A stretch of DNA of 64,000 bases. It comes from Paracoccaceae bacterium. GTDB lineage: Bacteria; Pseudomonadota; Alphaproteobacteria; Rhodobacterales; Rhodobacteraceae. The notes under the pieces were generated by a model. That model saw only the letters and a program-made list of their open reading frames with translations, was not told the DNA's origin and ran no database searches. The DNA lies in NCBI GenBank assembly GCA_965214325.1, contig CBDCBG010000004.1:190843-254842 (forward strand). The letters run 5' to 3'. Position 1 is the stretch's first letter. Every line of letters starts with the position of its first letter. Of the stretch, positions 8,633 through 50,668 are shown one piece after another. The translations under genes were made by a program, and so were the position numbers.

Positions 8633-8974
8633 ATGAACGACTTCAAGGGGCGGCATTTCGAAGGCGAGACGGTGCTTTGGGCGGTGCGCTGGCACTGCCG
8701 GCATGGCATCAGCCATCGTGACCTTGGGGGAATGATGGCGGAACGTGGCGTCCGCGTGGATCACGGCACGGCACGATCCATCGCGGGGGGCGGAAATACG
8801 CACCTGCAATCGAAAAACGGATGCGTTGGCAGTGGCGACGCCCCCGGCCGGACGGTTGGCGGGTGGACGAGACCTGTGTCAAGGTGCGTGGGAAATGGGC
8901 ATGTCCTTGCCGGGCGGTCGACAAATTTGGCGACACGATTGATTTCCACCTGTCTGCGACACGCAATGCAAAGG
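8633..8974 (+). pseudogene. IS6-family transposase, N-terminal part (frameshifted, then interrupted)
   Basis: MNDFKGRHFEGETVLWAVRWHCRHGISHRDL... The frame is lost near 8775. The expected continuation RVDETCVKVRGKW..DKFGDTIDFHLSATRNAK lies in another frame. Confidence 0.8.
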
Positions 8975-9078
8975 GTAAGCGTTCGGTCGAGCGGTGACGA
9001 CGGTCCGTCCTGACGTCATTTCGGTCACTGCAAATCTGGCACTGGTAACTCGGAATCCAGCATGCTATCGCGTCGCGC

Positions 9079-10985
9079 ATGGAGATGCGCATCGAGGATT
9101 CCGGGACTTCGCCCGTTCCGGACGTTGCTGGCGACGGGCCCCTTTCGTCGTCGCGGCCGGCGGCGTCGGCGCCCGGTCCGGTCGACCGGGAATTCCTTTG
9201 CGAGCGCGAGCGTGTCCGTGCCGATGAGGCGGAAGCCCGCGCGGACGCTGCGGAGGCGCGCTGCGAGGACCTGCGCTGGAGGGAGGTGCGGGCCCGGCAC
9301 CGCGCAAGCAGCCTGGAAACGGCTGTCGAGAGGAACCGGGCGAAGCTGAACGCCGCCCGCGAGGCGGTCAGGAATGTCCGCCGGACGGCGAAGCGCGCCA
9401 TTGCGCTGGAGAAGGAGGTTGCGCGGCTGGGCAGGCTTCTCGCGGAGGCCGGCGTCGATGCGCGGAAGCGTTCCACGGTCATGTCCCTGCGCATGGAGAA
9501 CGCCGCCCTGAAGGCGGAGGCGGGCGATCTGCGCGACAGGGTCGCGGCGCTCGAGGCGCGGAACGACGAGCTTCGTTCGAGCAGGTCCGCGATGTCGAGA
9601 TCGCTGTTCGGCGGCAAGAGCGAGAAGAGGCCGGGGCCGTCGTCGAGGCGCGGGCGCGGCCAGCGGCCCGGGGCGCCCGGCCATGGCCGCACGCCCCGGC
9701 CGGACCTCGAGGAGAAGGAGGAACGGGTGGACCCGCCGGAGGACGCGCGGACCTGTTCCTGCTGCGGCAAGCCCTATGTCGCCAACGGCTCGCATGACTC
9801 GGAGGTCATCGAGATCGAGGTGAAGGCGCACAGGCGGAGGATCGTCCGCCCGCGCTGGCGCCGGGGATGCGACTGCGCCTCCTCGCCGTCCGAGGTGACG
9901 GCGCCGCCGCCGGCGCGGCTGTTCCCCGGCACGGCCTTCGGGACCAGCGTGTGGGCGCTTGTCCTGCACGAGCGCTTCATGTTCATGCGGCCCTGCCGCC
10001 GTGTCGCGGCCTGGCTGACATGCCAGGGCCTGGCGGTCTCGGCGGGGACGCTGGCCGACGGCACGGGCCGCATGCCGCCCCTGTTCGAGCCTCTCCGGGA
10101 GGCGGTCCTCGCGCGCCAGAACGAGGCGGGGCTGCGCCATGCCGACGAGACCGGCTGGCGGATCCAGGCCTTGAGGGAGATCCGGAAGTCGCACCGCGCC
10201 TGGCCCGGACGTCCGTCAGCCATGACGCGGTCCTCTTCCACGTCGACCGCACGCGCAGCGCCGAGGCCGCCGCGAAGCTGTTCGCCGACGCCGCCGGTCC
10301 CGTGCATCTGGTCTGCGACCGCTGCAGCGCCTGCAAGAAGCTGGCGCGCCTGTTGCCCGCAATCGTCATCCTGTGCTTCTGCTGGGCCCATTCCAGGCGG
10401 GATTTCCTGAAGTGCGCGACCGGGCGGCCGCGGCTGGCGGAGTGGAGGGACGAACGGGTCGACCGGATCGCGGGGACCTGCCGGCTGAACGCTGTCCGGC
10501 TCGGCTGCCTCGACCCCGGCAGCGGATCCCGGAAGAAGGGGTTCGAGGCGGCGCAGGCCGAACTGGAGGGTGCGGTCGCCACGCTGTTCGCGGAAGCCGG
10601 GCGCCAGCTGGGGAAGCTTCCGGAGGGGGCGCCGGAGGGCAAGCCCCTGCGCTCGCTGCTCAAGCACCGCGAGGGGCTGTGCGTGTTCCTCGGCCATCCC
10701 GAGGTTCCCATGGACAACAACGTCGCGGAAAGGGCCGTCAGGGGTCCGGCCATCGGGCGGAAGCTCAGCTTCGGCTCCGACAGCGAGGCGGGCGCCCGGA
10801 TGACGGCGGTCATGCATTCGGTCCTCGGCACGGTCGCGAGGAACGGTCTCGACGTCCTGCGCTGGCTCGGGGCGTGGCTTGACGCCTGCGCGGAGAACGG
10901 CGGCCTCCCGCCCGGCGACCTGTCGCCCTGGCTGCCGTGGTCGATGAGCGAGGAGAGAAGGCAGGCCTTCCTGGCGCCGCCGTGA
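9079..10985 (+). pseudogene. IS66-family transposase with internal frameshift (about 10,200)
   Basis: Coiled-coil N-terminus, CxxC zinc motif (CSCCGKPY), ADETGWRIQ, then the frame switches to ...SVSHDAVLFHVDRTRS...CWAHSRRDF...MDNNVAERAVR (IS66 motifs). No slippery heptamer at the shift. Confidence 0.8.
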
Positions 10986-11859
10986 CCGACGAGGTCGAGT
11001 GCCGCTGTCATGGCCATGACTTCACCGTCGCCGAAATGAGGCTGCTGCGCGAACTGGTCGCCACGGAGCCGACCCGGGCGGCCATCGCCCGCGCCTTCTG
11101 CCGCCGCATCGGCTGGCTGAAGCCCGACGGCGGCCTGAAGAGCATGATGGCGAAGGTCGTCATGCTGAAGATGCACCGCGACGGGATCATCGAGCTGCCG
11201 CCGCCGTCCCGGGCGCCACCCGTCCCGAAGCCGATCACGTTCGGGCCGGACACCGAGCCGCCTCCGCTGCTCCCCGTTCCGAAGGCCCTCGACGAGGTCC
11301 GCCCGCTGGATGTCCGGATCGTCAGGAGCGGCACCCGGGCAGGCAGGCTCTGGAACGAGTTCGTCGCCCGCTGGCACTACCTCGGATACACGCGCCTCGT
11401 CGGCGCGCAGATGCGCTACGCGGTCCATGACCGGAACGGCAGGCCTCTGGCCATGCTCGGCTTCTCGACCGCCGCATGGAGGCTGGGCCGAGGGACGCCT
11501 TCATCGGATGGACGCCGGAACTGCGCGAAAGGAACCTCCCGCTCGTGGTCGACAACCCGAGATTCCTGATCCTTCCATGGATGGCGGTTCCGAACCTGGG
11601 GTCCCACATCCTCTCGCTCGTCCGCAGGCGCCTGCCCGAGGACTGGACCGTGCGCTACGGCACCACGCCCGTGCTCTGCGAGACCTTCGTGGAGGTTCCG
11701 CGCCACAGCGGCGGCGTCTATCGTGCGTCAGGCTGGATCCGCGTCGGAACGACCAAGGGGCGCGGCCGCTACGACCGGCACAACAAGGCCGACAAGCCGA
11801 AGAAGGACATCTGGCTCTGCCCGCTCCGGAAGGACTGGAAGCGGACGCTCAACCGCTGA
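10982..11859 (+). pseudogene. DUF4338 (DruA-like) domain protein, frameshifted near 11,480
   Basis: GTG overlaps the transposase stop (GTGA). Homologous to the intact copy 51100..51978 and to the N-terminal half of 37196..39385 (RFLILPWM..NLGSHILSL, ETFVE...GGVYRASGW). One frameshift after AAWRLG. Confidence 0.75.
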
Positions 11860-12047
11860 CCCTCGTCCTGTCCTGTCCGCAGGCCGGATTGCAGCCCGTC
11901 GTCATCGAGGCACGGACGTCGGTCTCGGCGACGCCACCGCAGCGGAAAGCGGGGTCGGCACGATTGCGCATTCAGCGCGGCGGCAGTCAGGAAAGAAAGT
12001 CAGGCAGACAACGAAGACAGCTCGTCACCGCTCGACCGAACGCTTAC

Positions 12048-12477
12048 TGCAAAGGCGGCGAAACGCTTCCTTGGCAAGGCGTTGAAGGACTTGAAAGATT
12101 GGGAGCGACCACGGGTGATCAACACGGACAAGGCCCCGAGCCGTGCTGTCGCCCTGGCCGAACCGAAGGCCGAAATCACGCGCCCGGGCGACGTGCAGCA
12201 TCGTCAGGTCGAATATCTCGACAACATCGTGGAGGCCGACCACGGCAAGCTCGAACAGCTGATCCGCCCGGTGCGCGGGTTCAAGACGATGAAATCGGCT
12301 TGCGCCACGATCAAGGGCTTCGAAGCGATGCGTGCCCTGCGCAAGGGTCAATCCCGCAGCTTCGACCTGACCGGTGACATCAAGGGTGAGGTCCGCATGA
12401 TTGAACGCGCCTTCGGATTGGGCCAATGCGCCCTGACCGAGGCGATGACCATGCTCGAAGGCCGTCCGGCAGCATGA
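12048..12477 (+). pseudogene. IS6-family transposase, C-terminal part
   Basis: Continues AKAAKRFLGKAL... then VINTDKAP..., [43 protein letters not shown], the typical IS6 C-terminus. Confidence 0.8.
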
Positions 12478-43144: not shown

Positions 43145-45060
43145 GTGCGCCAGGCTAACTGGTGCGAGTGCAGCGGGTGAGAGTCCCGCAGGAAGGAAAG
43201 GTTAACCACCGACTTTCACCGCGAGCCGTGCGCCGGGCACCGTGAGGTGTCAGGTGAAGCGTCGGCAGCGGCATGTGCGGGCCGGGCGATTGAGCCTCGA
43301 AATGGGATTGATCGGATGCGCCGAGACTTTCCTTTGGGTCGAAGGCAACACCCATCAGCCGATATGGTGAGGCGAAATGGGGCATCCCGGGGTCAAAGAA
43401 CCATGGCACGTACAGAAGCATTCCACCGGGACCTGGGAGGTCTTCAAGTCGCCCCGCAGTCGTGCGGGGCCGCAGCGGAAAGGAGGGGAAACCCAAAGCC
43501 AATGACGGACGGCTTGAAGAAGTCAGACCCGTCCATAGTAGCTTTGAAACCAGCGAACAAAGGGCGGCAACGCTCAGCGGAGTTGGCGGAGCCAAGGGAC
43601 GGGGCCGAGGGAAATTCGGGAAGCCGAAGCAGGCGCCGCGCGCAGAAGCGGGAAAGCCTGTCACAGGAGGCCGACCGGATACGGCAGGCTGCAAAGAGAA
43701 ACCCGGAAGAGCGTCTCGTGGCGCTCCTGCACCACATCACGGTGCCCGTGCTGGCGGAAGCGTTCCACTCGCTCAAGAGTGACGTGGCCGCCGGCGTGGA
43801 TGGCGTGACGTGGGAAATGTATGCCGAAGGGCTGGAAGATCGCCTGATCGACCTGCACGGACGGCTGCACAGGGGAGCGTACCGCGCGCCGCCGGTTCGG
43901 CGGGTCGAGATACCCAAGCCGGACGGCGGAACACGACCGCTCGGCATCGCCACACTGGAGGACAAGATCGTTCAGAAGGCGGTGGCGGACATGATTCTGG
44001 TACCGATCTACGAGTCGGAGTTTCTCGGGTTCAGCTACGGGTTCCGACCGGGGCGCGGGGCGCACAACGCGCTCGACGCGCTCACGGTCGGAATTGAGCA
44101 GCGCAAGATCAACTGGATTCTTGACGCGGATATCCGCGCATTCTTCGACAATTTGGACCGGGGCTGGATGATTCGGTTTCTGGAACATCGCATCGGAGAC
44201 AAGCGCCTCATCCGCCTCATCACCAAATGGTTGAACGCTGGCGTCATGGAGGGGACCGACTGGACGGACACGGGCAGAGGCGTTCCTCAGGGGGCGATTG
44301 TCTCGCCGGTCCTGGCTAACGCCTACCTGCACTACGTGTTTGACCTCTGGGTGCACAAGTCATGGCGCAAACGGAAGGGGAAAGGCGACATGATCGTTGT
44401 TCGCTACGCGGACGACTTCGTGGTTGGCTTTCAACACCAGTGGGAAGCGGAGAGCTTCCTGAGCGATCTGAGGGAAAGGCTCGCCCGTTTCGGGCTGGAC
44501 ATGCACCCCGACAAGACCCGGCTCATTGCGTTCGGACGGTTTGCGAAAGCAAGACGGAAAGAACGCGGGCAGGGCAAACCGGAGACCTTCGACTTTCTGG
44601 GCATGACGCACTTTTGCGTCACCACCCTGCGAGGGAAATTCCGGGTCGGACGCAAGCCGTCCCGAAAACGGGTGAGGCGGACACTCAGGCGCATCAAGGA
44701 AGAACTGCGCAAACGTCGGCACATGGGCAAACACGAAGTGGCGCGATGGCTCGGAAGAGTCATCAACGGGTGGCTGAACTACTACGCCGTTCCCGGCACT
44801 TCAAAAGCCCTGTCGAGGTTTGTCATCGCGGTCAAGCGGCTGCTCCTGCGCGCCTTGCGCAGACGCTCGCAGAAAGACCGCACTGAATGGTCGGCACTGG
44901 CTCGCCTAATCGGAGCCCACTGGCCAGAACCCACCATCCGTCACCCGTGGCCCGGCCAGCGTCTCGCCGTCAACACCCAAGGCAGGAGCCGGATGCGTTA
45001 ACGCGCACGTCCGGATCTGTGCGGGGGGACCGGGGTAACCCGGTTTCCTACCGCGATTAC
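43145..45060 (+). mobile_element. group II intron A2, full length (1,916 nt)
   Basis: 5' GTGCGCCAGGCTAACTGGTGCGAG. Domain V GAGCCGGATGCGTTAACGCGCACGTCCGGATC spans the RT stop codon. Domain VI GCGGGGGGACCGGGGTAACCCGGTTTCCTACCGC. 3' end ...GATTAC. Confidence 0.8.
43502..45001 (+). CDS. group II intron reverse transcriptase/maturase (no endonuclease domain)
   Basis: RPLGIATLEDKIVQ, FRPGRGAHNA, DADIRAFFDN, GVPQGAIVSPVLAN, RYADDF, GWLNYYA. AGGAGGGG RBS. Paralogue of 34648..36144. Confidence 0.9.
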   Translation: MTDGLKKSDPSIVALKPANKGRQRSAELAEPRDGAEGNSGSRSRRRAQKRESLSQEADRIRQAAKRNPEERLVALLHHITVPVLAEAFHSLKSDVAAGVDGVTWEMYAEGLEDRLIDLHGRLHRGAYRAPPVRRVEIPKPDGGTRPLGIATLEDKIVQKAVADMILVPIYESEFLGFSYGFRPGRGAHNALDALTVGIEQRKINWILDADIRAFFDNLDRGWMIRFLEHRIGDKRLIRLITKWLNAGVMEGTDWTDTGRGVPQGAIVSPVLANAYLHYVFDLWVHKSWRKRKGKGDMIVVRYADDFVVGFQHQWEAESFLSDLRERLARFGLDMHPDKTRLIAFGRFAKARRKERGQGKPETFDFLGMTHFCVTTLRGKFRVGRKPSRKRVRRTLRRIKEELRKRRHMGKHEVARWLGRVINGWLNYYAVPGTSKALSRFVIAVKRLLLRALRRRSQKDRTEWSALARLIGAHWPEPTIRHPWPGQRLAVNTQGRSRMR

Positions 45061-45077
45061 ATGACCCACCACTTTGA

Positions 45078-45224
45078 TCATGCCTGATTTCTTATGCGCA
45101 TGATGGTCTGTCTGCTGGTCCCGAACTGCCGGGCGATTGACGAAATGGACTCGCCGCCTCGAATCCTTTCCTTCACCAGCTCCTGCTGACCGGCGTTGAG
45201 AGCCGGCGGCCGGCCCAGCTGCTT
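45078..45224 (-). pseudogene. serine recombinase (resolvase/invertase) C-terminal HTH fragment, truncated by IS6 copy C
   Basis: [41 protein letters not shown] is a typical resolvase HTH tail. The upstream catalytic domain is absent. Confidence 0.65.
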
Positions 45225-46144
45225 GGCCCTGTTGCAAAAACCGCTCTCAGCTGTCCTTGCGAGCGAGGCAGCGGTAGATTGCGCTTTTGGAGACCCTCCC
45301 ATGACCCATGACTTCAAGTGGCGGCACTTCCGGGGCGAGATCATTCCGCGGGCCGTTCGGTGGCACTGCGGATATGGCGTCAGCTACCGTGACCTCGAGG
45401 AAATGCTGGAAGAGCGCGGCGTCGCGGTGGACCATGCCACCATCCATCGCCGGGTGCAGGCCTGCGCGCCGGAAATCGAAAGGCGCCTGCGCCGGCACTG
45501 TCGCCCAGGCGGACTTTCGCGGTCCCGGCGCGTGGACGAGACCTGCATCAAGGTCAGAGGGAAACGGGCGTATCTGTACCGCGCGGTCGACGGCCGTGGC
45601 GACGCCATCGACTTCCACCTGTCGCAGACCCGCAATGCCAACGCCGCCAAGCGGTTCCCGGGCAAGGCGCTGCGCGGGTGCAAGGAGCGGGAGAGGCCCG
45701 TCGTGATCAACACCGGCAAGGCGGGATGCCACGGCCAGGCCATCCGGGAGTCGAAGCAGGCCGGCAAGTGTCCCCCCGAGACCGGACACGGGCAGGTGAA
45801 ATGCCTCGACAACGTCGTCGAAGCCGATCACGGCAAGCTCAAGCGCCTGATCAAGCCGACCCTTGGATTCAAGTCAATGAAGACGGCCTGCGCCACGATC
45901 AAGGGCTTCGAGGCGATGCGTGCCCTAAGGAAGAAGCAGGCCAAGGCCTTCCAGCTTCAGCCCGGCATCAGGGGCGAAGCGCGTCTTGTCGAACGTGCCT
46001 TCGGGATCGGGCCGGAGATGTCGAGCGAGCTGATGTCGCTGCATGGAGCGGAGCTTGAAAAGATCGCGATCCAGCAAGGATCTTGAAGAAAGACGGAACC
46101 AGACCAAACCCCCGGCAACTCCGGCAAATTCTTGCAACAGAGCC
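45225..46144 (+). mobile_element. IS6-family element, copy C (intact)
   Basis: IRs GGCCCTGTTGCAAAA / TTGCAACAGAGCC. Intact transposase. No TSD. Same orientation as copies A and B. Confidence 0.85.
45301..46086 (+). CDS. IS6-family transposase
   Basis: [41 protein letters not shown]...[20 protein letters not shown]...[16 protein letters not shown]. 261 aa. Confidence 0.9.
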
Positions 46145-46544: not shown

Positions 46545-48323
46545 ATGCCAGCCATGGCCCTCAACATCGAATCCGTCCCCAACCAGGCAGGAAAGCCCGC
46601 AATCCTCCTCCGCCAGGCTTGGCGGGAGGGAAAGCGGGTCCGCAAGAGGACCGTCGCCAACCTCTCGAAGTTCCCGCCCGAGATCGTCGATGGCTTCCGG
46701 GCCGTGCTCAAGGGCGCCGTCGCCGTCAGCGACGTCGGCGACCTCATGCAGGTGGAGCGCTCCCTCCTGCACGGACACGTCGCCGCCGTCCTCGGCACCG
46801 CGCGGGACCTCGGCCTCGAGCGCATGCTCCACCGGACCCGCAGCCGCGAGCGCCAGCTGGCGCTGGCCGCCGTCGTCTCGAGGGTGCTGTCGCCCGATTC
46901 CAAGCTCGCCACCGCCCGGCGGCTGTCGCCCGAGACCGCGACGAGCAGCCTCGGCGCCCTGCTCGGGCTCGGCCCCGTCGCCGGCAACGAGGTGCTCGAC
47001 ATGCTCGACTGGCTGCTGAAGCGCCAGCCCTGGATCGAGAGGAGCCTGGCCAGCCGGCACCTGAAGGACGGAACGCTCATCCTGCATGACGTGAGCAGTT
47101 CGTACCTCGAGGGCACCTGCTGCCCGCTCGCGGCCTTCGGCCACAGCCGCGACGGGAAGAGGGGCAAGCGGCAGATCGTGTTCGGGATGCTCTGCGCCTC
47201 CGACGGCTGCCCGGTCGCGGTGGAGGTGTTCCCCGGAAACACCGCGGACCCGTCCACGGTGGCAAGCCAGGTGAACAGGATCCGAAAGCGCTTCGGCATC
47301 GACCGCATCGCCCTCGTGGGCGACAGGGGGATGCTGACCACGGCGCGGATCCGCGAGGACATCGAGCCGGCGGGGCTCGACTGGATCTCGGCGCTGAAGA
47401 CGGGAGACATCCGCAAGCTCCTGAAGGAGGGCGCGGACGGCGCCCCGGCCCCGCTTGTGCCCGAGGCCCTGGCTCCCGACGCGGTGGCCGAGGTCACGGG
47501 CCCGGACTTCCCCGGCGAGCGGCTGATGGTCTGCATGAACCCCCGGCTGCGGCAGGAGCGGGCGCGCAAGCGTTCGGACCTGCTCCAGGCCACCGAGGAG
47601 GCGCTGGCGGCGATCGCGAGGTCGGTGCGCTCGGGCCGGCTGAAGGGCCGGGAGGCCATCGACCGCCGGGTGGGCAGGGACGTCAACCGCCGGAAGGTCG
47701 GGAAGCACATGGAGGTCGACGTGACCGACAGGGGCGTCTCCTGGCGCCGGCGGAAGGACCGGATCGAGGCGGAGGCGCGGCTCGACGGCGTGTACGTCAT
47801 CCGCACCAGCCTGGATTCCGCCTCCATGGGCGCAACGGAGGCCGTCGAGGATTGCAAGTCGCTCGCCGGCGTGGAGCGCGCGTTCCGGAACGACAGGAGC
47901 GACCTCCGGATCCGTCCGGTCTACGTGTACTCCCCCGACCACGTCCGCGCGCACGTGTTCCTTTGCATGCTGGCCCTGCACGTCGAATGGCACATGCGCC
48001 GGCGCCTCGCGCCGCTCCTGTTCGAGGACGACGACCGCGCGGACGCCCGGGAACGGCGGAACTCGCCGGTGGAGAAGGCCCGGCCGTCGGAATCCGCCCG
48101 GCGGAAGGCCGCAACGAAGCGCACCGCAGACGACCTGCCCGCCCACAGCTTCCGCACCCTGCTCGACGATCTCTCGGGGATGGCGCTGAACCAGCTGCGC
48201 CTGTCGGACCATGACGCAAGCCTGCTGTCCGTCGTCACCAGGCCGACCCCGGTCCAGAAACGGGCGTTCCAGCTTCTCGGAGTGAACCCTGACCGGAACG
48301 TTCCCATAAGGATGACAGGTTGA
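46545..48323 (+). CDS. IS1634-family (IS4-related) transposase
   Basis: HDVSSSYLEG, GHSRDGKRGKRQIVFGML, VFPGNTADPST, ALVGDRGMLT, DGVYVIRTS, VERAFRNDRSDLRIRPVYVYSPDHVRAHVFLCMLA. An alternative ATG lies at 46554. IS ends not resolved. Confidence 0.8.
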   Translation: MPAMALNIESVPNQAGKPAILLRQAWREGKRVRKRTVANLSKFPPEIVDGFRAVLKGAVAVSDVGDLMQVERSLLHGHVAAVLGTARDLGLERMLHRTRSRERQLALAAVVSRVLSPDSKLATARRLSPETATSSLGALLGLGPVAGNEVLDMLDWLLKRQPWIERSLASRHLKDGTLILHDVSSSYLEGTCCPLAAFGHSRDGKRGKRQIVFGMLCASDGCPVAVEVFPGNTADPSTVASQVNRIRKRFGIDRIALVGDRGMLTTARIREDIEPAGLDWISALKTGDIRKLLKEGADGAPAPLVPEALAPDAVAEVTGPDFPGERLMVCMNPRLRQERARKRSDLLQATEEALAAIARSVRSGRLKGREAIDRRVGRDVNRRKVGKHMEVDVTDRGVSWRRRKDRIEAEARLDGVYVIRTSLDSASMGATEAVEDCKSLAGVERAFRNDRSDLRIRPVYVYSPDHVRAHVFLCMLALHVEWHMRRRLAPLLFEDDDRADARERRNSPVEKARPSESARRKAATKRTADDLPAHSFRTLLDDLSGMALNQLRLSDHDASLLSVVTRPTPVQKRAFQLLGVNPDRNVPIRMTG

Positions 48324-48852: not shown

Positions 48853-50330
48853 TCACCCCTTTCCCAGGGCGGGTTGAGGGTCATGCAGTTCGATCATTTT
48901 GGCGGCATTTCCGGCGAGCGCGATCTGGATGGCGACGAGAGGGTTGTATCCGAGAGCCTCCATTGAGCTCAGGTAGCTCGAGATCCGGCACCAGGCGTGG
49001 GCGTGGAGTTGTGTCCGGAAGCATCCCGACACCTGATCTTGACCTTCGCCATGCGGATCTTCCGCTCCCCGGCATTGTTCGTGAAGCTGACGTCCGGGTC
49101 GCCCATGAAGCGCAGGACGGACCCTTCGTGCTTGACGAGGCGCTCATGGAGGTTGTGTGCATCGGACTTCGCGATCCGGCCGCGTTTTCCTTTCGGCTTC
49201 GGCGGGATGACGGGCAACTCGTTGCCCCCCTGGGTCAGGATGGTCCGGTAGCGCCTGCGCACGGCCGTGCGCCCGTCCTCGGGCAGGGTCTTGGTGTCGC
49301 TCCTGTTGACCCTGTGGCAGGCCTCGCGCAGCAGCCTCTTCATCAGGCGCGCCCAGCGGTAGCCGTTGGAGTCGACGACGAAGGTCAGCTCCCGCAGGAG
49401 GTGAGAGCCACAGAGCTGATGGCTGCACTGGTCGTAGGCGAAGTACGATGCCCAGCAGTCGTGGACCAGGGTGCCTGTGCAGCGGGGGATGATGCCGATG
49501 TCCTCGATCGCCTCCTTTCCGCGCTTGCGGTGCAGGAACTTCAGGGTCAGGGACCCGTCGGTGACGACATGGAGCCATTGGGTTCTGCCGTCGACCCGGA
49601 AGCCGGTCTCGTCGGCATGCAGGGCCGGGCGTTCCAGCAGCTGTGCGATGGCGGCGTGCTCCCATGATGCGAGGGCGTCATGAAGGCGGCGCACGCAGCC
49701 CAGGCAGGTGGCTTCGGAGAGCCTGAGGCCCGAGATCGCCTGCACCAGCGCGACGGCCCGGCGCAGCGACAGCATGTGGGCGCCCGGCAGGTTGACGACG
49801 AAGGCCTGGAGGCCGGCGCCGTACTGCAGCGGGCCCGGCATGTCGTCGGGGAACCGGCCCTTGGTGCGGGCCCGGCAGTCCGGGCATTCCTTGACCTCGG
49901 CCTCCACGCGGCGCTCGACGACCTCGAACACGATGTCGTGCAGGACGCGACGTTCCCGGCCGGCGGGGTCGACGCCGGACAGGTCGGCGCCGCATGTGTC
50001 GCAGGCCTCGACGGCGACCGTCTCCTCGACGGTGGTCTTCCGGAGGTTGTCGCCCGTCTGCAGGTTCGGCTTCGCGCCCTTGCCGCTGCTGCCGGCGCGC
50101 CGTGCGGTCCCGTCCCTGTCCGTCTGCGACGGCGGGAGGCTGGAGTTCCTCGATCCCTTGCGGGTCGTCCTTTCCAGCAGGACGGCGATCAGCACGCTCA
50201 TCAGCGTGATCAGCATCGCGAACATCGCGTCGGCTTCCGCCGACACCTTGCCGGCCTCGCGCAGCGTCTTGATCCGCGCCTTTGCCGCCTCGAACTCGTC
50301 GCGCAGCGACGCCGCGTTCACCGTCGCCAT
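48853..50330 (-). pseudogene. IS66-family transposase with C-terminal frameshift
   Basis: Colinear with 26831..28291 until AKVKI. The expected ...VSGCFRTQLHAHAWCRISSYLSSMEALGYNPL continues in another frame and ends at a TGA inside the IR. Confidence 0.75.
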
Positions 50331-50668
50331 CACCCGGCCTCCACCGCGAGCCGCTCGCCCGGGGGCGTCGCGCGGCAGCGGCGCTGCGACCTGCGCGTCG
50401 ACTGCACGCAGGGCGGCTCGCGGCCCTGGAAGTCGAAGCCGGACAGGAAGCGGCGGGCGCAGCCATGGCGGAGCTCGACGGGGCAGTCCCGTCCGAAGCC
50501 GTCGGTCGCCCGGCGGTCCAGGCCGATGCCGCGCTGCGCGGGCGGCTTGCGCTTCATGATCGCGCCGCCGCCCAAGCGCGTTTCCAGACATGCGGAACGA
50601 GGCGGCATGAGGCTCACGATGGCCTGGCAGAGCCCCGTCGTCGCCTTTGACCCGTACCATGCCCCCAT
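50330..50668 (-). pseudogene. Dam-like methyltransferase remnant (internal deletion removes the DPPY region)
   Basis: MGAWYGSKATTGLCQ... aligns with 28291..28953, but the segment containing DPPY is missing (about 290 bp shorter). The same TGATG overlap with the transposase start is kept. Confidence 0.7.

Follow-up and report, generated by a model that had tools for sequence, protein, structure and literature searches.

We analysed a 64,000-nt stretch of DNA from a Paracoccaceae bacterium (the window; coordinates count from its first letter), in which two copies of an insertion sequence carry, directly downstream of an IS66-family transposase gene, a gene of the DUF4338 (DruA) family. Judged from sequence comparison, the element is an IS66-family insertion sequence of a distinct clade, on the single-transposase (ISBst12-like) side of the family, with an accessory gene that seems to be undescribed. 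DUF4338 is linked recurrently to several transposase families, fusions included, so that the wider finding would be a DruA-type GNAT domain acting as a recurrent transposase partner. We think it probable that the DUF4338 protein is an integral transposon-associated factor and not a stray passenger, a function that we infer; for its particular chemistry our confidence is much lower.

Both copies are 3,073 bp long. They are placed in inverted and not in direct orientation, one as the reverse complement of the other: copy A lies at 8975..12047 on the plus strand, and copy B at 50912..53984 on the minus strand. The first-pass annotation had these sizes and coordinates right, but the copies are not identical, as they are separated by 22 single-nucleotide polymorphisms (SNPs) and by two single-base indels whose effects on length offset each other (~99.2% identity). 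The IS66-style GTAAGCG termini that it had reported proved to be the start of perfect 26-bp terminal inverted repeats, GTAAGCGTTCGGTCGAGCGGTGACGA, present in both copies. In copy A they are found at 8975..9000 (plus strand) and 12022..12047 (minus strand), complementary at 26 of 26 positions, and in copy B at 50912..50937 (plus strand, DUF4338-proximal) and 53959..53984 (minus strand, transposase-proximal). Each copy is flanked by a perfect 8-bp target-site duplication, TGCAAAGG for copy A (8967..8974 and 12048..12055) and GGTCAGGA for copy B (50904..50911 and 53985..53992). The two duplications differ, as had been noted, and the chance of two independent 8/8 matches is about (4^-8)^2; the conclusion that the element has transposed therefore holds. 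Copy A sits inside an IS6-family transposase gene (the flanking open reading frame (ORF) 12082..12477 matches PF13610), copy B inside an IS5/IS4-type transposase gene (the flanking ORF 53946..54713, minus strand, matches PF01609). As the copies interrupt different genes and have each their own duplication, they represent two separate insertion events of one element.

A two-gene IS66 clade and other transposase partners of DUF4338

A DUF4338-seeded scan of one genome per species gave 221 loci confirmed by tblastn, 80 of which were kept (L001-L080). An IS66 transposase gene was present upstream of the DUF4338 gene, on the same strand, in all 80, and within 200 bp of it in 79. Pairs of inverted repeats beginning with GTAA bounded elements of 2.9-3.4 kb in 61 of the 80 loci, and perfect 8-bp duplications were seen in 46, all of them different. 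Intact relatives consist of one transposase ORF of 620-784 amino acids (aa) that overlaps a DUF4338 ORF of ~293 aa and leaves no room for further genes; low-GC intact elements have two ORFs of at least 100 aa only. The junction between the two genes could be scored in 64 loci, and read ATGA in 52 and GTGA in 8. In L001, L008 and L017, which are intact, PF03050 and NF033517 are matched over their full length. The hosts were Paracoccaceae, other Alphaproteobacteria, Gammaproteobacteria and Thermodesulfobacteriota, often with high copy numbers, and more than 25 copies were counted in one chromosome of 2.39 Mb.

The association was also approached from the transposase side, by scanning metagenome contigs with a transposase profile, independently of DUF4338. 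Of the 17 loci whose transposase reached 37% identity or more, 15 had DUF4338 directly downstream; the two others have at most 121 bp of downstream sequence. DUF4338 was absent downstream of all the transposase relatives of 29-36% identity having at least 600 bp of downstream sequence. These nearest relatives are single-ORF IS66 elements, without TnpB or DUF4338. The same scan included 54 loci whose upstream sequence extended over at least 400 bp, and none of them had a TnpB. A phmmer search (E <= 10) of the six-frame translations of both window copies and of intact relatives detected no TnpA- or TnpB-like sequence; its positive control alone was detected, and the earlier statement that tnpA/tnpB-like ORFs are lacking was correct. 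The partnership of DUF4338 with its transposase thus defines, in these comparisons, a clade of IS66, with the single-ORF elements as sister group. Since this sister group is single-ORF, the DUF4338 gene looks to have been added to an ISBst12-like lineage, and not substituted for tnpA and tnpB; the first proposal, that it replaces the usual accessory ORFs, is for this reason not the likely history. The layout recurs in all 80 related loci and in 15 of the 17 reached through the transposase, and the possibility raised at the outset, of a passenger confined to this genome, does not hold.

How does the element compare with described insertion sequences? With the single-ORF (ISBst12-like) group it has in common the IS66 DDE transposase, repeats of ~26 bp starting with GTAAGCG, the 8-bp duplication and the lack of tnpA and tnpB. 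It differs by the coupled downstream DUF4338 gene and by an extra N-terminal coiled coil in the transposase of the DUF4338 clade, with heptad repeats in one lineage; the placement in this group was made via the nearest relatives, not ISBst12 itself. Because the second, coupled gene is found throughout the clade, we treat the element as a variant of the ISBst12-like group and not as a plain member of it. Canonical IS66/IS679 elements (tnpA-tnpB-tnpC) are likewise multi-gene, with the same transposase family, the same style of ends, 8-bp duplications and overlapping genes, but their accessory genes are unrelated and lie upstream of the transposase, whereas that of the present element lies downstream. 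A functional analogy may be drawn with IstB (IS21), TnsC (Tn7) and TnpB (IS200/605), each of which is also a second protein co-inherited in a minimal transposon. IstB and TnsC are AAA+ ATPases, however, and TnpB is an RNA-guided nuclease; none of them has the GNAT fold or is homologous to the DUF4338 protein.

Several features of individual relatives were recorded on the way. At L098:2754-6098 and L109:174-3266, both among the 15 loci reached through the transposase, and in proteins P0297 and P0305, a single uninterrupted frame runs through the IS66 transposase and DUF4338, giving fusions of 810-883 aa. In a Thermodesulfobacteriota sequence (OZ220467.1, L022:2398-2570) and its sister copies L008-L035, 21-bp (heptad) tandem repeats are found in the region of the transposase gene coding for the N-terminal coiled coil, with 8.2 copies in L022. 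Element length ranged from 2,891 to 3,269 bp among the more than 25 copies of the 2.39-Mb genome, for which variation in repeat number may account. Finally, bins placed in widely different phyla, such as Cenarchaeum sp. SB0669_bin_11 (an archaeal name) and Boseongicola sp. IRC3_bin_8, contain DUF4338 proteins with 70-94% identity to that of the window, a distribution suggestive of recent horizontal transfer in a single habitat, possibly that of sponge-associated communities.

IS66 is not the only family with which the domain is found. A clade of DUF4338 proteins of ~293 aa, ~40% identical to the window protein and linked to Tn5-like (IS4 family) transposases, gave at least 7,936 matches. There, the DUF4338 gene lies upstream of the gene for a 456-aa transposase, with a 4-bp overlap, in elements of 2,364 bp with ends starting with CTGACT; the contigs are ~2.4-2.9 kb long, a typical signature of collapsed insertion-sequence repeats. 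One such element, on a Thiodictyon plasmid (NZ_CP020372.1, L081:4893-9780), is flanked by a perfect 9-bp duplication, GGCCCTGGG, which together with the ends marks this type as a genuine insertion sequence. A nested element with a site-specific integrase and an IS91 transposase interrupts it, and the whole structure lies inside a DUF2235 gene.

In a third type, DUF4338 is part of the transposase polypeptide itself. These ISAs1 fusions, of ~443 aa, are made of a DUF4338 core followed by DDE_Tnp_1_assoc and DDE_Tnp_1, an architecture found in all of the best 120 matches, and are annotated publicly as 'ISAs1 family transposase'. Single-polypeptide fusions of DUF4338 to IS66, Tn5-like, IS4-type and IS630-type transposases were found as well. 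In a Pfam census of 148 cluster representatives, most of the domains co-occurring with DUF4338 were transposase-related, with 7 cases of the IS66 DDE domain, 5 of the Tn5 DNA-binding domain, and single cases of the others. The Tn5-like and ISAs1 types resemble the IS66 type by a GNAT core 37-42% identical to that of the IS66-linked protein, with the same invariant residues, and by its coupling or fusion to a DDE transposase. They differ from it by the transposase family and by the order, which is reversed, DUF4338 being upstream or N-terminal.

The DUF4338 protein and its relation to DruA

The protein encoded by the intact DUF4338 gene of copy B matches Pfam PF14236 'DruA' (formerly DUF4338) with E = 9.7e-37 and 127 bits (cut-off 27), over profile positions 45-227, so that the family assignment made in the first pass stands; no NCBIfam model matches it. 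An AlphaFold2 model of this protein (51100..51978), built on 59 homologues, had a mean pLDDT of 81.6. It predicts an N-terminal domain (residues ~1-70; two short strands and three helices, pLDDT >90), a proline-rich linker and a C-terminal alpha/beta domain (~105-290). The structural comparison that had been proposed for this ORF was made with the model: Foldseek matched the C-terminal domain to GNAT structures in the PDB (phosphinothricin acetyltransferase, SpeG, NAT10 and GCN5) with a probability of 1.0, E-values down to 1e-5 and target-normalised TM-scores of 0.5-0.67, and the structural matches among viral proteins were likewise GNAT (NAT_SF). A sequence search of the PDB with the family profile gave nothing meaningful (best E = 0.5). 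The C-terminal part of the present protein is thus predicted by the model to have the GNAT acyltransferase fold, in agreement with an independent paper in which DUF4338 is stated to be a GNAT domain (PMC10853773).

The segment corresponding to the acyl-CoA pyrophosphate-binding motif, Q/RxxGxG/A between strand 4 and helix 3, reads IPNLGS here and KNLAS in the Tn5-linked clade, with only the last small residue and the serine conserved. A motif-B-like VYRASGW is present, and R145, Y146, D172, R194, E234, Y247 and a GRG motif are invariant across clades sharing ~40% identity. At the level of the gene, the ratio of nonsynonymous to synonymous substitution rates (dN/dS), taken across elements from different genomes, ranged from 0.08 to 0.46 (mostly 0.16-0.34); whenever a pair allowed both ratios to be estimated, the value for DUF4338 was below that for its partner transposase. 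Over 55 pairs of 11 elements, the median identity of the DUF4338 protein was 75% (79% when the GNAT part is taken alone), against 59% for the C-terminal 420 aa of the transposase, and in 55 of 55 pairs the DUF4338 protein was the more conserved. The pair L038-L043 (transposase 56%, DUF4338 90%) was left out of this count, as the transposase ORF of L043 is probably damaged. The DUF4338 gene is under purifying selection, and is the most constrained part of the element.

The first-pass annotation had called the gene Druantia DruA-like. This is right for the family, PF14236, but the proteins linked to insertion sequences form, by sequence, a separate subfamily distantly related to true DruA. The reference used was the type I druA-E locus of the Ralstonia plasmid pUW163a, whose DruA has 413 aa and matches the whole PF14236 profile with 281 bits. 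Its GNAT core is homologous to that of the insertion-sequence-linked protein (hhalign probability 96.6%, E = 6.6e-10), over an alignment of 93 columns. By contrast with DruA, the latter protein has 292 aa, 127 bits on the Pfam profile and only 23 bits on the PADLOC DruA model, and the motifs ETFV and YRA(S/A)(G/N)W, conserved in the insertion-sequence-linked proteins, are missing from DruA. In a tblastn search of the plasmid collection, true DruA was reached from the window protein with E = 0.4 only. The neighbourhoods differ too: type I DruA adjoins druB-E, including a DEAD/DEAH helicase, and such neighbours were absent from the loci examined. No druB-E gene was found beside the window copies, where the flanks are fragments of other insertion sequences, or in the 80 loci, where the upstream neighbour is the IS66 transposase.

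The insertion-sequence-linked subfamily is large: in a search with one representative per 50%-identity cluster, 7,695 clusters were matched at E <= 1e-3, and 4,216 at the stricter limit of E <= 1e-10. Homologues on plasmids were limited to the Thiodictyon element and to distant true DruA genes, and none was found in 50,697 phage records. One phage protein was considered separately: Mom of phage Mu, a DNA-modifying enzyme of GNAT fold, has in common with the DUF4338 protein a short motif, G.VY.AS.(W/F)..(V/I)G, and two family members gave sub-threshold matches to Pfam Mom (E = 0.0078 and 1.1e-4). Homology to Mom was not supported by hhalign (probability 1.3%, 18 columns), and we keep the resemblance as a lead only.

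Putative role of the DUF4338 protein

In intact elements the order is left inverted repeat, transposase gene, DUF4338 gene (~293 aa) and right inverted repeat, and the transposase (~620-780 aa) comprises the N-terminal coiled coil, Zn-finger-like CxxC motifs and the IS66 DDE domain. The DDE transposase acts on the 26-bp GTAAGCG ends and inserts the element with an 8-bp staggered cut, as the 46 related insertions with distinct 8-bp duplications show. Transposase and DUF4338 protein are most likely made from one mRNA, with translational coupling through the ATGA or GTGA overlap, and the most likely site of action of the DUF4338 protein is the transposition complex, alongside the transposase. This protein might transfer an acyl group to the transposase, to a DNA-bound host (nucleoid) protein or to nucleic acid, or it might serve as an adaptor; its net effect would be to promote or regulate transposition.

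The reading that has to be weighed most seriously against such a role is that of a passenger, i. e. a stand-alone defence or anti-defence protein, or a factor of benefit to host or element, merely carried along and taking no part in the transposition reaction. Insertion sequences can carry passenger genes, the Pfam family owes its name to Druantia DruA, and true DruA sits in a defence operon. Moreover, conservation above that of the transposase fits selection on an independent function, and in copy B the DUF4338 gene is intact though its transposase has two frameshifts. The gene organisation points the other way: the 4-nt start/stop overlap with the transposase is kept in 60 of 64 loci, the gene occurs in the transposase clade wherever this could be checked and is missing from the sister group, and neither druB-E nearby nor any homologue in the phage records was found. 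The independent associations with Tn5-like and ISAs1 transposases and the in-frame fusions to IS630- and IS4-type DDE transposases are not expected of free-standing cargo. Fusion into a transposase polypeptide argues against a free-standing cargo, toxin or defence function, and we regard the passenger reading as unlikely. The same fusions, stable as they are, bear on the suggestion that the protein is a GNAT toxin of the TacT or AtaT kind, which would penalise loss of the element and so stabilise it. The predicted fold would suit a toxin, as would strong purifying selection independent of transposase integrity. Yet elements of 2.9-3.1 kb offer no space for an antitoxin gene and have no additional conserved ORF, more than 25 copies are present in one small genome, and among the structural matches toxin GNATs do not stand out from generic GNATs. 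We consider an addiction module very improbable indeed.

Could the protein take part in transposition without catalysis, as an enzymatically dead GNAT fold that binds DNA or protein for target selection, end recognition or transpososome assembly? The degenerate acyl-CoA motif A is consistent with this, and so are the weak, non-significant resemblances of the N-terminal three-helix domain to helix-turn-helix (HTH), winged HTH (wHTH) and homeodomain proteins, and the position of DUF4338 at the N-terminus of the transposase in Tn5-like, IS630-type and ISAs1 fusions, the usual place of DNA-binding modules. On the other hand, the partners have DNA-binding domains of their own, PF14706 in the Tn5-like, HTH_23/32 in the IS630 and the CxxC motifs in the IS66 transposases, and the ISAs1 fusions drop the N-terminal domain and keep the GNAT core alone, which together speak against a mere DNA-targeting domain. 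Many polar residues of the GNAT core are also invariant across clades of ~40% identity, and VYRASGW is retained. A non-catalytic adaptor seems to us quite improbable. The first-pass annotation had offered a DNA-targeting or transposition-accessory role; the accessory half of this proposal is strengthened by the coupling or fusion, seen in sequences, to Tn5-like, ISAs1, IS630-type and other DDE transposases, and the purely DNA-targeting half has become less likely, given the partners' own DNA-binding domains and the GNAT fold predicted for the conserved part of the protein.

We therefore come back to the DUF4338 protein as an integral factor of the transposon, against which several points have to be counted. 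The loci L001-L080 were found through the DUF4338 protein, a bias that the transposase-seeded scan corrects in part. Conservation above that of the transposase would also be compatible with selection on a separate function, for example addiction or a benefit to the host. The N-terminal domain, modelled alone, had no significant match in the PDB (best E = 1.3, with the HTH, wHTH and homeodomain resemblances mentioned above), and since the ISAs1 fusions are without this 100-aa domain, the domain requirements differ between contexts. The degenerate acyl-CoA motif makes catalysis uncertain, and singleton fusions (IstB, Mutator) could be nested insertion sequences or gene-calling artefacts. Finally, the element type may already be catalogued in ISfinder, as our search for a DUF4338-transposase partnership, which returned nothing, covered the searchable literature and not ISfinder.

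A more specific proposal, which we put forward tentatively and hold to be doubtful, is that the DUF4338 GNAT domain is a catalytic transposition cofactor of a new class, an acyltransferase recruited separately by the unrelated IS66, Tn5-like, ISAs1 and possibly IS630-type transposase families. Its substrate at the transposition complex would be the transposase, DNA itself or a host protein bound to it. DruA would then be a relative that has passed between mobile elements and defence systems.

The window copies, their surroundings and the wider significance

The gene content announced for the two copies was an IS66-family transposase and a ~292-aa DUF4338 protein coupled to it by GTGA. The PF03050 and NF033517 matches and the GTGA overlap are there, but the genes are not all intact. 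Lesions were judged by alignment to L001, the closest intact relative, from a Paracoccaceae genome (87.7% nucleotide identity). In copy A the transposase gene (9079..10985, plus strand) has one frameshift, a T missing after 10204, and would code for ~635 aa if repaired, with no internal stop. The DUF4338 gene of copy A (10982..11859, plus strand), whose GTG start overlaps the TGA of the transposase gene and whose product belongs to the DruA family, with a predicted GNAT fold, is a pseudogene as well, broken by a base missing after 11484. In copy B, the DUF4338 gene (51100..51978, minus strand; 292 aa, GTG start in the GTGA overlap) is intact, and is the only intact DUF4338 ORF of the two copies. 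Its transposase gene (51975..53880, minus strand) has two frameshifts: the one common to both copies, between 52755 and 52756, and a second one due to the absence, near 53468/53469, of a G that is present in copy A at 9491. As a consequence, the PF03050 match is split over two frames in both copies (positions 3-91 and 102-283), and so is that of NF033517 (positions 1-175 and 179-385). The transposase is thus a pseudogene in both window copies. A programmed -1 frameshift was considered for the transposase and ruled out, as there is no slippery heptamer at the site, the relatives are single-ORF, and one T is simply absent.

These frameshifts might be errors of assembly, the copies being functional in reality. 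All the lesions are single-base indels, the one after 11484 lies in a G run, and many of the related records are long-read metagenome-assembled genomes. Two of the three lesion sites are not homopolymers, however, and the lesion at 10204 is common to both copies in spite of the 22 sites at which they differ. Decay is also seen in further insertion sequences of the window, and the frameshifts are probably real, since nearby genes outside insertion sequences are full length, e. g. the Trp halogenase gene, which matches Pfam profile positions 1-457 of 458. We judge assembly error to be distinctly unlikely. That two differently sited copies have one lesion in common implies that an intact copy mobilised the element in trans, or else that the lesion spread through gene conversion. 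The SNPs separating copy A from copy B fall in clusters, with 5 in 38 bp (9776..9813) and 8 in 92 bp (11194..11285), a pattern suggestive not of clock-like divergence but of gene conversion involving other, diverged copies.

Both insertions nest one insertion sequence inside another. Copy A splits its target gene into 8633..9013 and 12082..12477 (plus strand), this IS6-family gene being itself apparently frameshifted, and copy B splits the gene of which 53946..54713 (minus strand) is a part. At 78 bp from copy B lies a different IS66-family transposase ORF (48969..50834, minus strand; PF03050, E = 4e-36) with no DUF4338 downstream, meaning that plain single-ORF IS66 elements coexist in the region with the DUF4338-bearing type. 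Many more mobile elements are packed into this region, among them a group II intron reverse transcriptase/maturase (43247..45001, plus strand; PF00078 and PF08388), an intact IS6-family transposase (45196..46086, plus strand; PF13610) and a 592-aa IS4-type DDE_Tnp_1 ORF (46545..48323, plus strand). Just past the insertion-sequence cluster stands the full-length tryptophan halogenase gene (56248..57738, plus strand; PF04820, E = 4.6e-180).

For annotation, the results call for some caution. PF14236 now bears the name 'DruA', although the majority of the relatives in this subfamily are located in transposons. PF14236 matches beside transposases should not be counted as Druantia or as defence, and such counts could be inflated. 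Conversely, the annotation of the ISAs1 fusions as plain transposases hides their GNAT domain.

In the searchable literature we found no function described for DruA (DUF4338), a signature protein of type I Druantia. The present work places the closest large set of its relatives inside minimal transposons, as the sole partner of the transposase, and provides a clear case of a domain common to mobile elements and defence systems. It also points to a class of insertion-sequence accessory proteins of which we found no description. The element offers an experimentally tractable system of two genes in which the function of the domain can be worked out and, if the catalytic cofactor reading is true, transposition assays of a simple kind could be enough to infer what DruA does.

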